Assembly (NCBI GenBank): GCA_963774265.1
Contig: CAVZDU010000004.1
Span: 1 to 35,312 of the forward strand
DNA: 35,312 nucleotides
Origin: an uncultured Chloroflexia bacterium
GTDB taxonomy: Bacteria > Chloroflexota > Anaerolineae > CG2-30-64-16
Direction: 5' to 3'
Both the position numbers and the translations under genes were made by a program. Positions within the stretch are counted from its first letter, which is position 1. The number at the start of each line of letters is the position of its first letter. Below the pieces are notes generated by a model that did no database searches, had not been told where the DNA came from, and saw nothing but the letters and a program-made list of their open reading frames with translations. Positions 23,190 to 35,312 of the stretch are shown here, one piece after another.

Positions 23190-24401
23190 ATGGAGTTCGG
23201 GTGGACCGAAGAACAGAGAATGTGGCGCAAGGCCGTGCACGATTTTGCCCAGAAGAAGATCGCTCCGCGCGTCCGGGAAATCGATGACACCAGCAACATC
23301 CCCCAGGATATCATCAAGGCCATGGCGGACATGGGGCTGTGGGCGCCAACTGTGTCGGAGAAGTACGGCGGCAGCGGTCTGAATGTCACGATGGCCACCA
23401 TCGCCGCGGAGGAGCTGGGCCGGGCCGACATCAGCCTGGCGTTGCCGGTCATGTACCTGGTGCAGGCAAGCTGGGGTTACGTCTTCGAACGTTACGCCAG
23501 CGAAGCGCTGAAGGCTGAGTTGCTGCCCCAGGTGACGGCGGGCAAGCAGTTCCTGGGCATCGCGTCCACCGAAGCGGGCGGAGGCTCCGATATCGAAGGC
23601 GTCACCCGCTGCACGGGAACCAGGCAGGCCGACGGCAACTGGATCCTTAACGGCGAGAAGCTCTACATCAGCGGCATTAAGGAATCGGAGCGCATGGGCG
23701 GCGCATACATGACCCTCGTCCGCAGCGATCCGCAAGCCGGCCACAAGGGCTTCACCTTTTTTGCGGTCGACATCAAGGACAACCCGAAGGTCTCCACAAC
23801 CCTGATCCACAACTGGGGCCGCACCGGCATCTCGACCGGCGGCTTCACCATGGATGACATGCCGCTGTCCGATCACTACCGCATCGGCGAGGAGGGCAGG
23901 GGCTTCTACTACGCCATGGAGGGCTACACCTACGCGCGCGCCCTGATCGGCGCAACCTGCTGCGGTGCGGCCGACACTGCTCTCGGCATGGGTGTGGAGT
24001 ACATCCGCCAGCGCAAGTCGTTCGGCAAGCCGCTCGCTGCATACCAGGGCATTAACTTCCCGGCCGCGGAGCGCTACACCGACATCGAGGCCGCGCGGCT
24101 CCTCACCTACAAGGCCGCGTGGATGGCCGACCAGATGTACGAGCGGGGGAAGGGCAAGCCCAAGGACGTCGCGCTGTGGGGCGCAATGTCCAAGCTGCGC
24201 GCGCCGATCATGGCGTTTGAGACGTTCAACGAGGTGGCGAATTGGCTCGGCGCGATGGGCTACTCGAAGGAATATCCCATCGAGATGGGCATCCGGGGCG
24301 TACGATCGTACTCCATCGGCGCCGAGGGCGGTATGAACATCATGCGGATGATCATTGCCCGTGAACTGATCGGCAATGAGTACACCAACCCGAGGCAGTA
24401 G
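23190..24401 (+). CDS. Acyl-CoA dehydrogenase
   Basis: MEFGWTEEQ, STEAGGGSD, LNGEKLYIS, RKSFGKPL, GAMGYSKEY, IGAEG. AGGAGG precedes the ATG at 23190. Confidence 0.92.
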   Translation: MEFGWTEEQRMWRKAVHDFAQKKIAPRVREIDDTSNIPQDIIKAMADMGLWAPTVSEKYGGSGLNVTMATIAAEELGRADISLALPVMYLVQASWGYVFERYASEALKAELLPQVTAGKQFLGIASTEAGGGSDIEGVTRCTGTRQADGNWILNGEKLYISGIKESERMGGAYMTLVRSDPQAGHKGFTFFAVDIKDNPKVSTTLIHNWGRTGISTGGFTMDDMPLSDHYRIGEEGRGFYYAMEGYTYARALIGATCCGAADTALGMGVEYIRQRKSFGKPLAAYQGINFPAAERYTDIEAARLLTYKAAWMADQMYERGKGKPKDVALWGAMSKLRAPIMAFETFNEVANWLGAMGYSKEYPIEMGIRGVRSYSIGAEGGMNIMRMIIARELIGNEYTNPRQ

Positions 24402-24403
24402 CG

Positions 24404-25033
24404 TTGTCGCAACTGGATCGTCGTTTCGAGATCGCGTATGATCGCACCCGCGCCGCATGGGCCCCGGCCGACCCGGCGCGGGCTGCTGCGTTGGCTGGCG
24501 GTGTGCTGGCGCCTGAAGGGGTCCAGGTGACCTATTTCGGCCGGCCTCACCTCGTCCCGCACCCGGAGGGCGAGGTGATCAATGCGGCCACCGGCAAACC
24601 GGCCCATGCGTCCATCGCCATCGTGCTGTGGCACTATCTGCTTACTGCGGATGGCGTCGCGCCGGCAGACCGTTGGTTGACGTTCCGCGAGTTGCCCAAT
24701 GGCCTGTTCTATTCGGCGGCCTTCGCGGGGCACGCGGAGGGGCTGCTGGCCGAGAAGTTCGGCTCGGATGTCGAGGGCTTCCACAGCGCGTGCAGCTCGC
24801 TGGGCGGCGATCTGCTGACTGCGGCGCCCGGCGCGGGTCTGGCGCCGCCCGACGCGGCCTACCGCTTCCAGGCGTTCCCGCGGTTGGCCCTAGCGGTACA
24901 GCTTTGGGAGGGGGACGAGGAGTTCCCGGGCCGCGTGCAAGTGTTGTTCGACGCGCACGCCAGCCACTACTTACCGACAGAGGATCTGTCAGGGGTCGGC
25001 GACTGGCTGGCGCACAAGTTGATTGCAGATTGA
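24404..25033 (+). CDS. DUF3786 family protein
   Basis: IVLWHYL, WLTFRELPNG, AFPRL and WEGDEEFPGRVQVLFD...YLPTED match the recalled family pattern. Confidence 0.78.
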   Translation: MSQLDRRFEIAYDRTRAAWAPADPARAAALAGGVLAPEGVQVTYFGRPHLVPHPEGEVINAATGKPAHASIAIVLWHYLLTADGVAPADRWLTFRELPNGLFYSAAFAGHAEGLLAEKFGSDVEGFHSACSSLGGDLLTAAPGAGLAPPDAAYRFQAFPRLALAVQLWEGDEEFPGRVQVLFDAHASHYLPTEDLSGVGDWLAHKLIAD

Positions 25034-25102
25034 AGGTTGCAGATCGGCACTTTGGGCTCTGCCATTCATCGACCCTGGTGAGACCATCTGAAGGAGTTGT
25101 CT

Positions 25103-25873
25103 ATGGCTATTGGAGTGGGACAGGTTGCACCCGATTTCAATCTCAAGAGTCATGTCGGAAAGCCGGTGTGTCTGAGCGACTACCGCGGAACGAACGTCGT
25201 CCTGGTGTTCTTCCCGCTCGCCTGGACCCCGGTCTGAACGAGCCAGATCCCGTCATACCAGGCCGAGCTGGCCCGGTTCCGCGGGATGAAGGCCCAGGTC
25301 ATGGGCCTAAGCGTGGATAGCACGGATTGTCTGCGGGCGTGGGCCGACAGCCTCGGGGGGATCGATTACCCCCTGCTGAGCGATTTCTTCCCGCATGGAC
25401 AGGTGTCACAGCTCTACGGTGTGTTGAGGCCGGAGGGCTACTCGGAGCGGTCGATCTTCATCATCGACAAGGAAGGCATCGTCCGCTATGTGGACGTGCA
25501 CGACATCGACAGCCAGCCGGATAACGATGTGTTATTTGAGGAGTTGGCGAGGCTCGAGCCGGCGGCCGCGGCGCTGTGGGAGGCGCAGGAGCAGGCTCGC
25601 CAGGCTGCGATGGCGCCACAGCCGACGCCCCAATCCGGCCTGACAATGTACTGCACGCCCTGGTGTTCGGACTGCCGGCAGGCGCGCGTGTGGCTCAAGG
25701 AGCATAACATCCCCTATGTTGAGGTGGACATCTCGAAGGACCGCGCGGCGGCCAGGCGGGTGAAGGAGTGGGCGCACGGCAGCGAAACCACCCCGACCTT
25801 CGACTGCCACGGGACGATCATTGTGGACTGGGATGTGCCGAAGTTGCGCGAGGTGCTGGGCGTGAAGAAGTAA
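25103..25873 (+). CDS. AhpE-like peroxiredoxin with probable selenocysteine (TGA codon 45), fused to a C-terminal glutaredoxin/mycoredoxin-like domain; 256 aa
   Basis: AAGGAG at 25091 and ATG at 25103. MAIGVGQVAPDFNL...VLVFFPLAWTPV-TGA(25235-25237)-TSQIP is in frame with ORF 25286-25873. Also PxxxTxxU, LLSDFFPHGQVSQLYGV and MYCTPWCSDC. Confidence 0.88.
25247..25287 (+). promoter_or_regulatory. Candidate bacterial SECIS hairpin
   Basis: ATCCCG-tcata-CC-a-GGCC-gagct-GGCC-c-GG-ttccg-CGGGAT begins 10 nt after the in-frame TGA. Confidence 0.55.
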
Positions 25874-25886
25874 CGACGCTCGGACT

Positions 25887-25914
25887 GAGGATGGAAGATG
25901 GAAGATTGAAGATT
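25887..25914 (+). repeat. Heptamer tandem repeat GA[AG]GAT[GT] x4
   Basis: GAGGATG GAAGATG GAAGATT GAAGATT. A related run (GATTGCA GATTGAA GGTTGCA) lies at 25021-25041. Confidence 0.65.
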
Positions 25915-25940
25915 GGCGGACTGGCTCCGCCGGTCGACCC

Positions 25941-25988
25941 AGGTGCCCGGCACTTCAACGATTCGGAGGATCGCAGTGCCGGGCACCT
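25941..25988. repeat. GTGCCnGGCAC REP-like inverted-repeat element
   Basis: AGGTGCCCGGCAC-ttcaaCGATTCggaGGATCGca-GTGCCGGGCACCT; homologous to 15922-15966. Confidence 0.78.
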
Positions 25989-26037
25989 TTCGCAGCCCCA
26001 CCTTTCGTGGGCACCTCTGTGCTGGCTGCACGCGGGC

Positions 26038-27133
26038 TCACAGCCACTGGCGGCGGCGGAAGGTCACCACCAGCCCCGTTGCCACCGCGATGCAGACGAG
26101 CCAGAAGGCCGGGTAGGCCCAGGGCTGTTCCAGCTCCGGGAAGTAGTGGAAGTTCATGCCGTAAACGCCGGCCATGAACGTCAAGGGGATGAAGATGGTG
26201 GAGATGACGGTCAGCACCTTCATGATCTGGTTCATACGGTTCGAGACCGCTGACATATAGCTCTCATACAAACCAGTCGCGCGTTTCGCGATACATCTCG
26301 ACGATTTCGATGATCTGCATGACGTGATCGTACAGGTCGCGCAGATAGATGCGAGTGTTGTCGCTCACGCATTCATGGGTGTCGCGCTGGAGCTGGGCGA
26401 CCATATCCCGCATGGGCCACATCACCCAGCGGAGCAGCATCAAATCATGCTTGATCTTGTTGATTTTCTGGTTTGAATTGCGTTCCGGGCCTTCGAGTAG
26501 CACACCTTCGATCTCCTCCATGTGCTCCTCGTAGTATTCGAGGATGGGGAAGCAGGTGTCCACAATTGCATCCAGGAGCGAGTGGACCAGGAAACTGGCG
26601 TCGCTGTGCCGCAGACGCGAGCCCTTGGCGTGCAGGCGCTGTCGAACCAGATCCCATTCGGGGCCCGGAGTCTCGCGAAACGTGAGCACGGTGTTGTGCC
26701 CGAGGAAGATCGAGATCTGTTCGCTGATCAACCGCTCGTCGACGAGCTCGAGGATGCGGGCCACGATGAAGAGCCGTGCCCGAATTCCGGTATCTTCGCC
26801 GCCATACGGCTCAACTTTGGGCCGGTCGTGCAGGTTGAGCAGATCCTCGACTGCCAGCGGGTGCAACTCGTACTTGGTCGCCAGCGTGTGAACCACACTC
26901 ATGTCCGAGAGACCGTCGACGTCGATCCAACGCACCGCCGCCCAATCAGGACGATGGCGATTGACGAAGTCCTCGATGTCATCGACCTGCTGTTCGACGT
27001 AAAGGGAGGGACCGTAGTCCAAACAAGTGACGTGGACTGGCTCCGGCCCGCTTGGCAGTGCCTCGATCTCATCGTGCTCGATCCCCGGACCTGAGCCCCG
27101 GCCACTTCCTGCGCCTTTGAAATATGCCGGCAT
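26038..27133 (-). CDS. corA: Magnesium/cobalt transporter CorA, frameshift near 26272
   Basis: WIDVDGL, LHPLAVED, RDLYDH, SNRMNQIMKVLT, GMNF, PEL. Confidence 0.9.

Positions 27134-35246: not shown

Positions 35247-35312
<66 letters not shown>

Follow-up and report, generated by a model that had tools for sequence, protein, structure and literature searches.

A predicted selenocysteine peroxiredoxin of the AhpE type fused to a glutaredoxin-like domain in Anaerolineae

The locus and its features

The window, the whole stretch of DNA analysed here, covers 35,312 nucleotides from an uncultured Chloroflexia bacterium (class Anaerolineae in GTDB). On its forward strand, positions 25103-25873 form a single reading frame in which, when TGA is translated as U, one TGA (codon 45) and no other stop precedes the closing TAA (Table 1). 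We conclude, with a probability of roughly 0.9, that this frame encodes a selenoprotein, predicted to consist of an AhpE-type peroxiredoxin with selenocysteine (Sec) at residue 45, a helical linker and a glutaredoxin/NrdH-like redoxin. Orthologues aligned to the fusion protein across residues 1-255, and its AlphaFold2 model had a mean pLDDT of 91.9.

A preliminary description of this DNA had proposed a selenoprotein hidden upstream of an annotated ORF. The ribosome-binding site, the ATG and the TGA at codon 45 were found exactly where it had placed them, the peptide it quoted was the exact translation of the frame with TGA as U, and the standard ORF list opened the gene at ATG 25286 (Met62), as it had claimed. 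The AhpE segment that it cited was present in the alignment with Rv2238c, with residue 45 of the query opposite the peroxidatic Cys. Its naming of the product as an AhpE-like peroxiredoxin held for the N-terminal domain and missed the glutaredoxin-like domain fused at the C-terminus.

Table 1. Features of the fusion gene, in positions of the window
Feature	Position	Strand	Basis or remark
Shine-Dalgarno-like AAGGAG	25091-25096	+	6 nt upstream of start codon; read from sequence
Full CDS, predicted Sec-peroxiredoxin/glutaredoxin-like fusion	25103-25873	+	256 codons, U at codon 45
Start codon ATG	25103-25105	+	read from sequence
AhpE-like peroxiredoxin domain, residues 5-130	25115-25492	+	PF00578 AhpC-TSA
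Catalytic set P38, T42, U45, R116	within residues 5-130	+	peroxiredoxin domain
In-frame TGA, read as putative selenocysteine 45, peroxidatic position	25235-25237	+	alignment to AhpE Cys
SECIS-like hairpin	25247-25287	+	begins 9 nt after TGA; single-sequence fold
Lower stem	25247-25253 pairs 25281-25287	+	fold
Middle stem	25257-25259 pairs 25275-25277	+	fold
Upper stem (4 bp)	25261-25264 pairs 25270-25273	+	fold
Apical loop GAGCU	25265-25269	+	27 nt past TGA
ORF from Met62, 195 aa, without catalytic centre	25286-25873	+	standard ORF list
Glutaredoxin-like (NrdH/mycoredoxin-like) domain, residues 181-232	25643-25798	+	PF00462
Cys184-x3-Cys188-x2-Cys191 (CxxxCxxC)	25652-25675	+	conservation and 3zit alignment
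Stop codon TAA of fusion gene	25871-25873	+	frame translated with TGA as U

Genes for an acyl-CoA dehydrogenase and a DUF3786 protein lie upstream, and genes for a CorA-like protein and QueA lie downstream on the opposite strand. This neighbourhood was weakly kept across 99 loci (DUF3786 at 26, acyl-CoA dehydrogenase at 17, QueA at 17 and CorA at 1), and no operon link was drawn from it. A scan of positions 24300-26400 yielded no promoter-like sites, and the terminator search of the same interval returned one weak minus-strand site, no more than in shuffled sequences.

Two redox domains and their proposed chemistry

The N-terminal domain was identified as a peroxiredoxin by its PF00578 (AhpC/TSA) score of 128.1 bits (cut-off 26), its thioredoxin-type fold and its P-x3-T/S-x2-C(U) motif with a conserved Arg. 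The best solved match was AhpE (Rv2238c) of Mycobacterium tuberculosis (E 7e-27), with the TGA opposite its peroxidatic Cys, and Rv2238c entries made up the top seven sequence matches among solved structures. The model superimposed on the AhpE fold with a TM score of 0.93 and an rmsd of 1.3 A over 153 columns, and nine of the top ten fold matches were AhpE chains, with an identity of only about 37% in the fold comparison. The domain was assigned to the AhpE subfamily as closest to AhpE among characterised peroxiredoxins, an assignment based on these sequence and fold matches. The residues P38, T42 and R116 were invariant among 54 aligned sequences, and residue 45 was U or C in all 100 distinct orthologues. 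Of the candidate resolving cysteines of the domain, which a one-Cys enzyme of the AhpE subfamily would lack, Cys23 was found in 4 of the 100 and Cys76 in 79, with S, V or T replacing Cys76 in 19. Searched with the fusion protein, no NCBIfam model scored at or above its cut-off; the PrxU model NF040737 reached 64.7 bits against 270.

The C-terminal domain scored 47.2 bits with PF00462 (Glutaredoxin; cut-off 22.9). Its nearest solved chains were a 78-aa 'thioredoxin' (3zit/3zij, E 3e-9), and mycoredoxin-1 of M. tuberculosis (2lqo, E 9e-8) was also among its nearest solved relatives. All 100 distinct orthologues had Cys at positions 184, 188 and 191, and the three residues were invariant also in the 54-sequence alignment. 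The segment C188-S-D-C191 aligned with the CPPC of 3zit, so that an active-site CxxC accompanies the profile match and the domain is classed as a glutaredoxin-like redoxin; Cys184 faces A or T in the CPPC redoxin of the alignment and is unmatched by it. The scores with TIGR02200 (mycoredoxin; 48.7 bits, cut-off 89.5) and TIGR02196 (YruB-type glutaredoxin-like; 51.8 bits, cut-off 88.55) indicate that the domain resembles both models and is a member of neither. The fusion of peroxiredoxin and redoxin was retained in every orthologue found.

This architecture suggests that the fused redoxin recycles the peroxidatic residue. In the proposed cycle, the selenolate of U45, held in a pocket of P38-x3-T42-x2-U45 and R116, would reduce H2O2 or an organic hydroperoxide and be converted to a selenenic acid. 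A Cys of the C184-x3-C188-x2-C191 motif would attack the selenenic acid and form a selenenylsulfide, either within the chain or across a dimer, and a second Cys would resolve it, leaving a disulfide within the redoxin domain. A low-molecular-weight thiol, or an enzyme resembling thioredoxin reductase, may then reduce this disulfide again.

The protein could also be a real selenoprotein in which the redoxin does not recycle Sec45, serving as a sensor or as a relay to other targets, or in which Cys76 is the resolving residue. The frequency of Cys76 and the presence of an invariant Cys184 with no match in the aligned CPPC redoxin would fit such a protein, which we consider unlikely in view of the retention of the fusion in every orthologue found, the invariance of all three redoxin cysteines and the replacement of Cys76 by S, V or T in about a fifth of the sequences (19/100). 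A recycling redoxin also has a parallel in the one-Cys AhpE, which is reduced by the related mycoredoxin-1 according to a passage of a review (PMC6178380).

Decoding of the in-frame TGA

Codon 45 was TGA in 99 of 100 distinct orthologues (50-85% identity, from Anaerolineae genomes) and TGT in one. Among 301 genomes drawn evenly from the class, 28 copies were found, 27 of them with TGA, and loci from named Anaerolineae MAGs gave TGA in 79 and TGT in 1 of 80. A search of 61 relatives returned 33 full-length matches and one partial match (61-100% identity), each with one TGA, and at 30 of 30 loci in relatives the TGA was at the same codon. The sequence around it, FFPLAWTPV-U-T.QIP, was nearly invariant, and the protein was conserved on both sides. 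TGT was found at codon 45 of two loci (L087 and L138), and 37 of 53 full-length database matches were Cys forms, so that the UGA, conserved in the orthologues of other organisms, also stands opposite Cys in homologues. A tree of 152 rows required at least 10 changes between Sec and Cys, at least 4 of which were forced by well-supported branches. It is this comparative evidence, with TGA in 99 of the 100 orthologues, that makes the case for the TGA decisive, and not the fold of a single sequence.

Sec insertion is usually inefficient, and products of 189-211 aa that start at or near Met62 are recorded in 64 of the best 120 public clusters, as would be expected if the TGA ended translation and the 195-aa protein from Met62 were the functional product. 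Such a product would be without P38, T42, residue 45 and the first strands of the fold. The conservation of codons 1-44 as protein and the position of the ribosome-binding site before 25103, not before 25286, further argue against it, and we regard a truncated functional product as very improbable.

The decoding of UGA by Sec-tRNA(Sec), SelB and an mRNA hairpin is established in bacteria. At this locus, the comparison supports a reading of the UGA by Sec-tRNA(Sec) delivered by SelB, which would be recruited by the hairpin that begins 9 nt past the UGA. The hairpin noticed in the preliminary description (ATCCCG..GGCC-GAGCU-GGCC..CGGGAU) was recovered in full. Folded as a single sequence, it had an MFE of -29.6 kcal/mol (z = -1.63) and was equalled by 11 of 200 shuffles, which is not significant alone. 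In the hairpin alignment, 90.3% of cells were paired, compared to 23-52% when the 3' partners were slid. The covariation score was reached by none of 500 shuffles, whereas 177 of 500 reached the count of three pairs in which both partners had changed. The covariation counts, which were taken within the coding sequence of related genes and over two stem registers split by the same feature that was later counted, gave six types for pair 24-54 (AU 16, UA 15, GC 9, CG 5, GU 5 and UG 4) and, for pair 21-56, CG 22 and UA 11. Some of the stem compensations alter amino acids, with A>V accompanied by A>D, and I>M by a change in the 3' arm. The alignment thus indicates that compensatory changes preserve the hairpin. 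In L087 and L138, both of the Cys forms with DNA, the lower stem was absent.

By the constraints for a bacterial SECIS (bSECIS) in the Fig. 2 legend of PMC13188914, the loop has 3-9 nt with a G at its first or second position, the upper stem has at least 4 bp, the loop lies 16-37 nt from the UGA, and the MFE does not exceed -7.5 kcal/mol. The hairpin in the window lies within all of them (loop GAGCU, 4-bp upper stem, spacing of 27 nt, MFE -28 kcal/mol). Strict bSECIS scoring on MFE folds was passed by 45 of 98 sequences of the family; 25 of the 98 had no G at either of these loop positions, and the UGA-loop spacing was 26-28 nt in 89 of them. At gathering scores, Rfam matched no SECIS family anywhere in the window and reported only a tRNA cut by the window end.

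The genome (84% complete, 5.7% contamination) yielded a tRNA-Sec (selC; 73.2 bits, cut-off 47), to which ARAGORN assigned the anticodon tca, together with selB (293 bits, cut-off 242), selA (506 bits, cut-off 268) and selD (382 bits, cut-off 125). The selD gene itself has a TGA at its Sec position (...CAG-U-ASK...). All four components were therefore present in one genome, with the selA copy split by a frameshift in a G run near G000:C1:1424728-1424734. We take this frameshift for an indel of the assembly, since a split of this kind recurs in relatives with few contigs and most others are intact; if the lesion were real, the organism would be unable to make Sec. Co-occurrence with selA was set aside as evidence, since selA scored above the cut-off in 57 of the 61 relatives, with or without the gene, and is non-discriminating. 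The best formate dehydrogenase alpha (FdhA) homologue of the genome contained no TGA. A second FdhA-like locus was fragmented, with TGA and TAA inside. The earlier proposal of U45, which had looked to the sel genes and to Cys/TGA alternation at codon 45, is borne out by the detected Sec machinery, the relatives with both TGA and a conserved hairpin, and the alternation of Cys and Sec.

W is printed at position 45 in 14 of the 53 full-length database entries and G in 2, as if TGA were translated as Trp or Gly through another genetic code (table 4 or 25). TGA closes 18 of the 32 stop-to-stop frames of at least 250 codons in the window, a crude count that includes non-coding frames, and it ends the open frame of the first selA part. 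Each match in relatives holds exactly one TGA, at the position of the family's catalytic Cys, where Cys forms alternate and where, to our knowledge, only Cys or Sec is functional in a peroxiredoxin. Together with the presence of tRNA-Sec, selA, selB and selD, these observations leave a recoded genetic code scarcely credible.

A pseudogene or sequencing error, with a nonsense substitution or a miscall in the Cys codon of an ordinary Cys peroxiredoxin, might be suspected from the lesions elsewhere in the assembly (the selA homopolymer frameshift and the broken second FdhA-like locus) and from the sequencing runs searched, none of which contained more than 10% of the sampled words, and is refuted by the conservation of TGA at the same codon in independent assemblies, beside protein conserved on either side and a co-conserved hairpin downstream. 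Because of this conservation across orthologues, a sequencing error at the TGA itself is irrelevant. No RNA run containing the sequence was listed. The four best runs represented contigs of relatives (no piece at least 99% alike); among the differences listed for those contigs none fell at 25235-25237, an observation given no weight.

Relation to known enzymes and significance

The fusion protein shares with AhpE Rv2238c the P-x3-T-x2-C/U motif, R116 and an LLSDF.PHG segment, and the AhpE partner mycoredoxin-1 is a redoxin of a type related to the fused domain. AhpE has a peroxidatic Cys and a separate redoxin, whereas the Anaerolineae protein would have Sec and carries its redoxin in the same chain. 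The Anaerolineae redoxin also has an extra invariant Cys (CxxxCxxC), and its host belongs to the Anaerolineae, where mycothiol is not established. By its domains, the fusion appears to unite in one chain AhpE and mycoredoxin-1, which are known as separate proteins.

PrxU, of the 'Prx' selenoprotein family (TxxU), was reportedly first shown in Eubacterium acidaminophilum in 2001, and we know of no redoxin fused to it. PrxU carries its Sec where the fusion protein is predicted to, at the peroxidatic residue of a peroxiredoxin of PF00578 (PxxxTxxU); the fusion protein is placed in another subfamily because of its score with the PrxU model. Hybrids of an N-terminal peroxiredoxin and a C-terminal glutaredoxin occur in Haemophilus influenzae and other proteobacteria, and their fused domain recycles the peroxidatic residue. 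These hybrids are of the Prx5 type, with Cys and a glutathione-dependent glutaredoxin. The Anaerolineae fusion differs from them in being of the AhpE type, with a predicted Sec and an NrdH/mycoredoxin-like redoxin, and no Prx5-glutaredoxin hybrid was among the fold-search matches listed. In selenoenzymes of the glutathione peroxidase type, the selenolate reduces the peroxide and a thiol resolves the selenenic acid. The logic proposed here is the same, in an unrelated fold family and with an unrelated active-site motif, and the Anaerolineae protein, unlike those enzymes, would carry its own resolving thiol.

A literature search found no report of a Sec-peroxiredoxin from Anaerolineae or Chloroflexi, of an AhpE-type enzyme with Sec, or of a Sec peroxiredoxin fused to a glutaredoxin. 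The 'Prx' selenoprotein family is listed in Table 1 of PMC1794560 and in a table and the text of PMC13188914. Where PMC2398784 deals with fusions of peroxiredoxins, it names several other partners and no glutaredoxin. Sec-peroxiredoxins are thus known, and the putative combination of an AhpE-type Sec enzyme with a redoxin bearing an invariant CxxxCxxC was not found in the literature or the curated models checked. We give roughly even odds to the fuller reading, in which the protein would be a self-recycling selenoperoxidase with Sec45 regenerated via a selenenylsulfide relay to the Cys184, Cys188 and Cys191 triad, a one-chain system assembled independently by Anaerolineae from AhpE and mycoredoxin, partners that are separate in actinobacteria, with several Sec/Cys switches and with paired amino-acid replacements driven by the SECIS element.

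The finding adds incrementally to a known class and brings no new principle. Anaerolineae are, by record titles, a major class in digesters, sediments and soils, and the selenoprotein would be common in Anaerolineae and truncated or misread in public annotation: beside the short products in 64 of the best 120 clusters, W or G takes the place of Sec in a further 16 entries. As no NCBIfam model reaches its cut-off, automatic annotation will go on overlooking the full gene. Through such misannotation, metabolic reconstructions lose an antioxidant enzyme, and the inference of genetic codes can be misled. A single fused enzyme that occurs naturally with either Sec or Cys would offer a clean system for asking what Sec buys a peroxiredoxin, and the fusion may serve as 'Rosetta-stone' support for the partnership of AhpE and mycoredoxin beyond actinobacteria.

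Reading frame and conservation of the in-frame TGA

A gene running from an upstream ATG through a single TGA had been proposed for this DNA from the sequence alone, with selenocysteine (Sec) at residue 45. The AAGGAG, the ATG and the TGA at codon 45 were all present as proposed (table), the peptide quoted in the preliminary description was reproduced when the frame was translated with TGA as U, and the gene start in the mechanical ORF list, as had been noted, corresponded to Met62. The U45 reading is backed by TGA conservation, hairpin comparison and the Sec machinery of the genome. On the comparative data, the gene is a real selenoprotein gene, with Sec read at codon 45 (probability about 0.95).

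Features of the selenoprotein gene and its surroundings in the window
Feature	Coordinates	Strand	Basis or remark
DUF3786 gene	24404-25033	+	155.8 bits; ends 70 nt ahead of selenoprotein start codon
Shine-Dalgarno-like AAGGAG	25091-25096	+	read from sequence
Start codon ATG	25103	+	read from sequence
Sole in-frame TGA, codon 45	25235-25237	+	read from sequence
Hairpin 3' of TGA	25247-25287	+	single-sequence fold
Compensated columns 34-45 of the orthologue hairpin alignment (A2)	25262-25273		
Compensated columns 19-24 with 53-58 of A2	25247-25252, 25281-25286		
ATG (Met62), gene start in mechanical ORF list	25286	+	ORF list
Stop codon TAA, ending the 256-codon frame	25871-25873	+	translation with TGA as U; no further stop
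tRNA gene, cut by the window's 3' end	35247-35312	+	Rfam tRNA, 56.2 bits

A six-frame search of 61 relatives yielded a match in 41 genomes. Exactly one TGA was present in 33/33 full-length matches and one partial match (61-100% identity), one of these 34 also containing a TAG, and the TGA occupied the peroxidatic position in 30/30 loci returned from the relatives. When species-representative genomes were scanned, 80 loci came back, and every source MAG bore a title such as Anaerolineae, Anaerolineales or Chloroflexota; codon 45 was TGA in 79 of them and TGT in one (L087); the pooled set of 100 distinct proteins had 99 TGA and one TGT. When 301 class genomes were evenly sampled, the fusion gene was found in 28, with TGA in 27 and TGT in one (L138). 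Alternation between TGA and Cys codons, for which a homolog alignment had been suggested, was observed in L087 and L138, and the public protein set held 37 Cys forms.

Among the best 120 clusters of that set, 67 lacked the active-site motif as scored by our own pattern; 64 of these were 189-211 aa products starting at or near Met62, and three were 251 aa. Residue 45 of the 53 full-length clusters was Cys in 37, W in 14 (e.g., entries P0015, P0022, P0023 and P0024) and G in two (P0020 and P0026); the W and G entries were taken to reflect translation of TGA by tables 4 or 25. A FastTree phylogeny built with the codon masked (152 full-length rows) required no fewer than 10 Sec/Cys changes, at least four of them forced by well-supported branches; the tree is quick and unrooted, so that the direction of change is not readable. 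The gene in the window fell in a 70-row clade, all Sec.

Adjacency to the DUF3786 gene was kept in 26/99 related loci and is therefore probably a matter of shared ancestry among close relatives, not of an operon.

The SECIS-like hairpin and the Sec machinery

The TGA and the hairpin stem are separated by 9 nt. Folded alone, the window hairpin reached -29.6 kcal/mol (z = -1.63) and was equalled by 11/200 shuffles; because the lone fold was no better than shuffles, the case rests on comparison. Across 30 orthologues, 90.3% of cells were paired, versus 23-52% with the 3' partners slid by 1-3 columns, and the covariation score was reached by 0/500 shuffles; the number of pairs changed on both sides (three) was not unusual, being attained by 177/500 shuffles. 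The lower stem occurred in two registers (63 vs 35) among 98 distinct TGA-bearing sequences, whose paired fractions are inflated by sorting to the best register. Pair-type variety is independent of this sorting: alignment columns 24-54 were AU in 16, UA in 15, GC in nine, CG in five, GU in five, UG in four and unpaired in nine; columns 21-56 were CG in 22 and UA in 11; and columns 24-53 were GC in 28, UA in five and CG in one. Some compensation altered the protein: QAALARF versus QVALDRF reflected GGCC/GGCC becoming GGUC/GACC (A>V with A>D), and Ile49>Met (AUC>AUG) accompanied a matching 3'-arm change. These comparisons indicate that RNA structure shapes the protein sequence directly after the active site.

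The hairpin, proposed earlier as a SECIS, agreed with all four constraints for bacterial SECIS elements in the Fig. 2 legend of PMC13188914 (loop GAGCU, 4-bp upper stem, UGA-to-loop distance 27 nt, -28 kcal/mol). Under our strict scoring of MFE folds 45/98 sequences passed, and the UGA-to-loop spacing was 26-28 nt in 89/98. The lower stem was absent in both TGT forms with DNA: L087 folded at -7.5 kcal/mol, and L138 retained the apical part only.

The search for Sec machinery suggested in the preliminary description recovered every component from the window's own genome (5.5 Mb, 10 contigs, 84% complete): tRNA-Sec (73.2 bits; ARAGORN anticodon tca), selB (293 bits, open 647-codon frame), selA (L017, 506 bits, frame-split) and selD (L019, G000:C1:464560-465808, 382 bits). 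The selD gene has an in-frame TGA (...SACAG-TGA-ASKL..., i.e., ...CAG-U-ASK...), which we take to be at the usual Sec/Cys site, and its selenophosphate synthetase looks like a further selenoprotein. The selA frame changes in a G run near C1:1424728-1424734 (within G000:C1:1424690-1424780), with the first 388 profile positions in one frame and 387-453 in another. Most relatives have selA as a single frame of about 452 positions; splits occurred in G001 and G007, assemblies of few contigs like the window's genome, and in G011 (500 contigs), while in G018 and G023 the gene lay partly on one contig and partly on another. The split here has the appearance of an assembly indel in a homopolymer. The best FdhA homologue in the genome contained no TGA. 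A second formate-dehydrogenase-alpha-like locus (L160, G000:C3:234324-236391) had several broken frames with TGA and TAA inside, which would fit either a pseudogene or a Sec-type FdhA that suffered indels in assembly.

Domain fusion, proposed chemistry and known families

Pfam assigned residues 5-130 to AhpC-TSA (128.1 bits) and residues 181-232 to Glutaredoxin (47.2 bits); the AhpE-like peroxiredoxin assignment thus held for the first domain, the C-terminal one having been overlooked. The best solved relatives by sequence search were M. tuberculosis AhpE (Rv2238c) entries (E 7e-27). Residue 45 aligned opposite the AhpE peroxidatic Cys, as had been claimed for the TGA, and the AhpE segment cited earlier was visible in the alignment (LLSDF.PHG). 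An AlphaFold2 model from 54 aligned sequences, in which P38, T42 and R116 were invariant, had mean pLDDT 91.9 and pTM 0.83, and its N-terminal domain superposed on AhpE chains (TM 0.93, rmsd 1.3 A). For the C-terminal domain, the closest solved chain was a 78-residue 'thioredoxin' (3zit/3zij, E 3e-9); M. tuberculosis mycoredoxin-1 (2lqo, E 9e-8) was the next solved redoxin, ranked behind several Spx regulator chains. C188-x2-C191 aligned onto the CPPC of 3zit. Cys184, Cys188 and Cys191 were present in 100/100 distinct orthologues, Cys76 in 79/100 and Cys23 in 4/100. Cys184 (25652-25654), the third invariant Cys, lies four residues ahead of the redoxin CxxC; the corresponding residue in the aligned CPPC redoxins 3zit and 3zij is A or T.

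From established knowledge and the comparative evidence, the UGA would be decoded by SelB acting at the hairpin. The Sec45 selenolate, in a P38/T42/R116 pocket, would reduce peroxide; the selenenic acid would then be resolved by the Cys triad of the fused redoxin, which a donor would re-reduce. Three points favour such a relay, which has even or slightly better than even odds: neither the fusion nor its Cys residues vary, mycoredoxin-1 is a relative of the C-terminal domain, and mycoredoxin-1 reportedly reduces one-Cys AhpE (PMC6178380, citing Hugo et al. 2014). Cys76 may also play a part.

Cys-type peroxiredoxin-glutaredoxin hybrids are known in proteobacteria. No NCBIfam model reached its own cut-off for the fusion protein (PrxU, 64.7 bits vs 270; mycoredoxin, 48.7 vs 89.5; YruB, 51.8 vs 88.55), and by the curated model the gene falls outside PrxU. 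Sec-peroxiredoxins with PxxxTxxU already form a recognised family of selenoproteins (PMC1794560, Table 1; PMC13188914, table and text); 12 Prx members are given in Table 1 of PMC1794560, whose Table 2 had only three selenoproteins from Chloroflexi at that date. A targeted literature search found no Sec peroxiredoxin-glutaredoxin-like fusion and no AhpE-type Sec enzyme in the texts covered, and supplementary lists beyond that scope may include such proteins.

Standard annotation hides this selenoprotein gene, and the family is widespread and mis-annotated. Gene calls with W or G at the Sec position can cause the wrong genetic code to be assigned to these MAGs. The principle is already known; the family offers natural Sec/Cys pairs within a fused enzyme.
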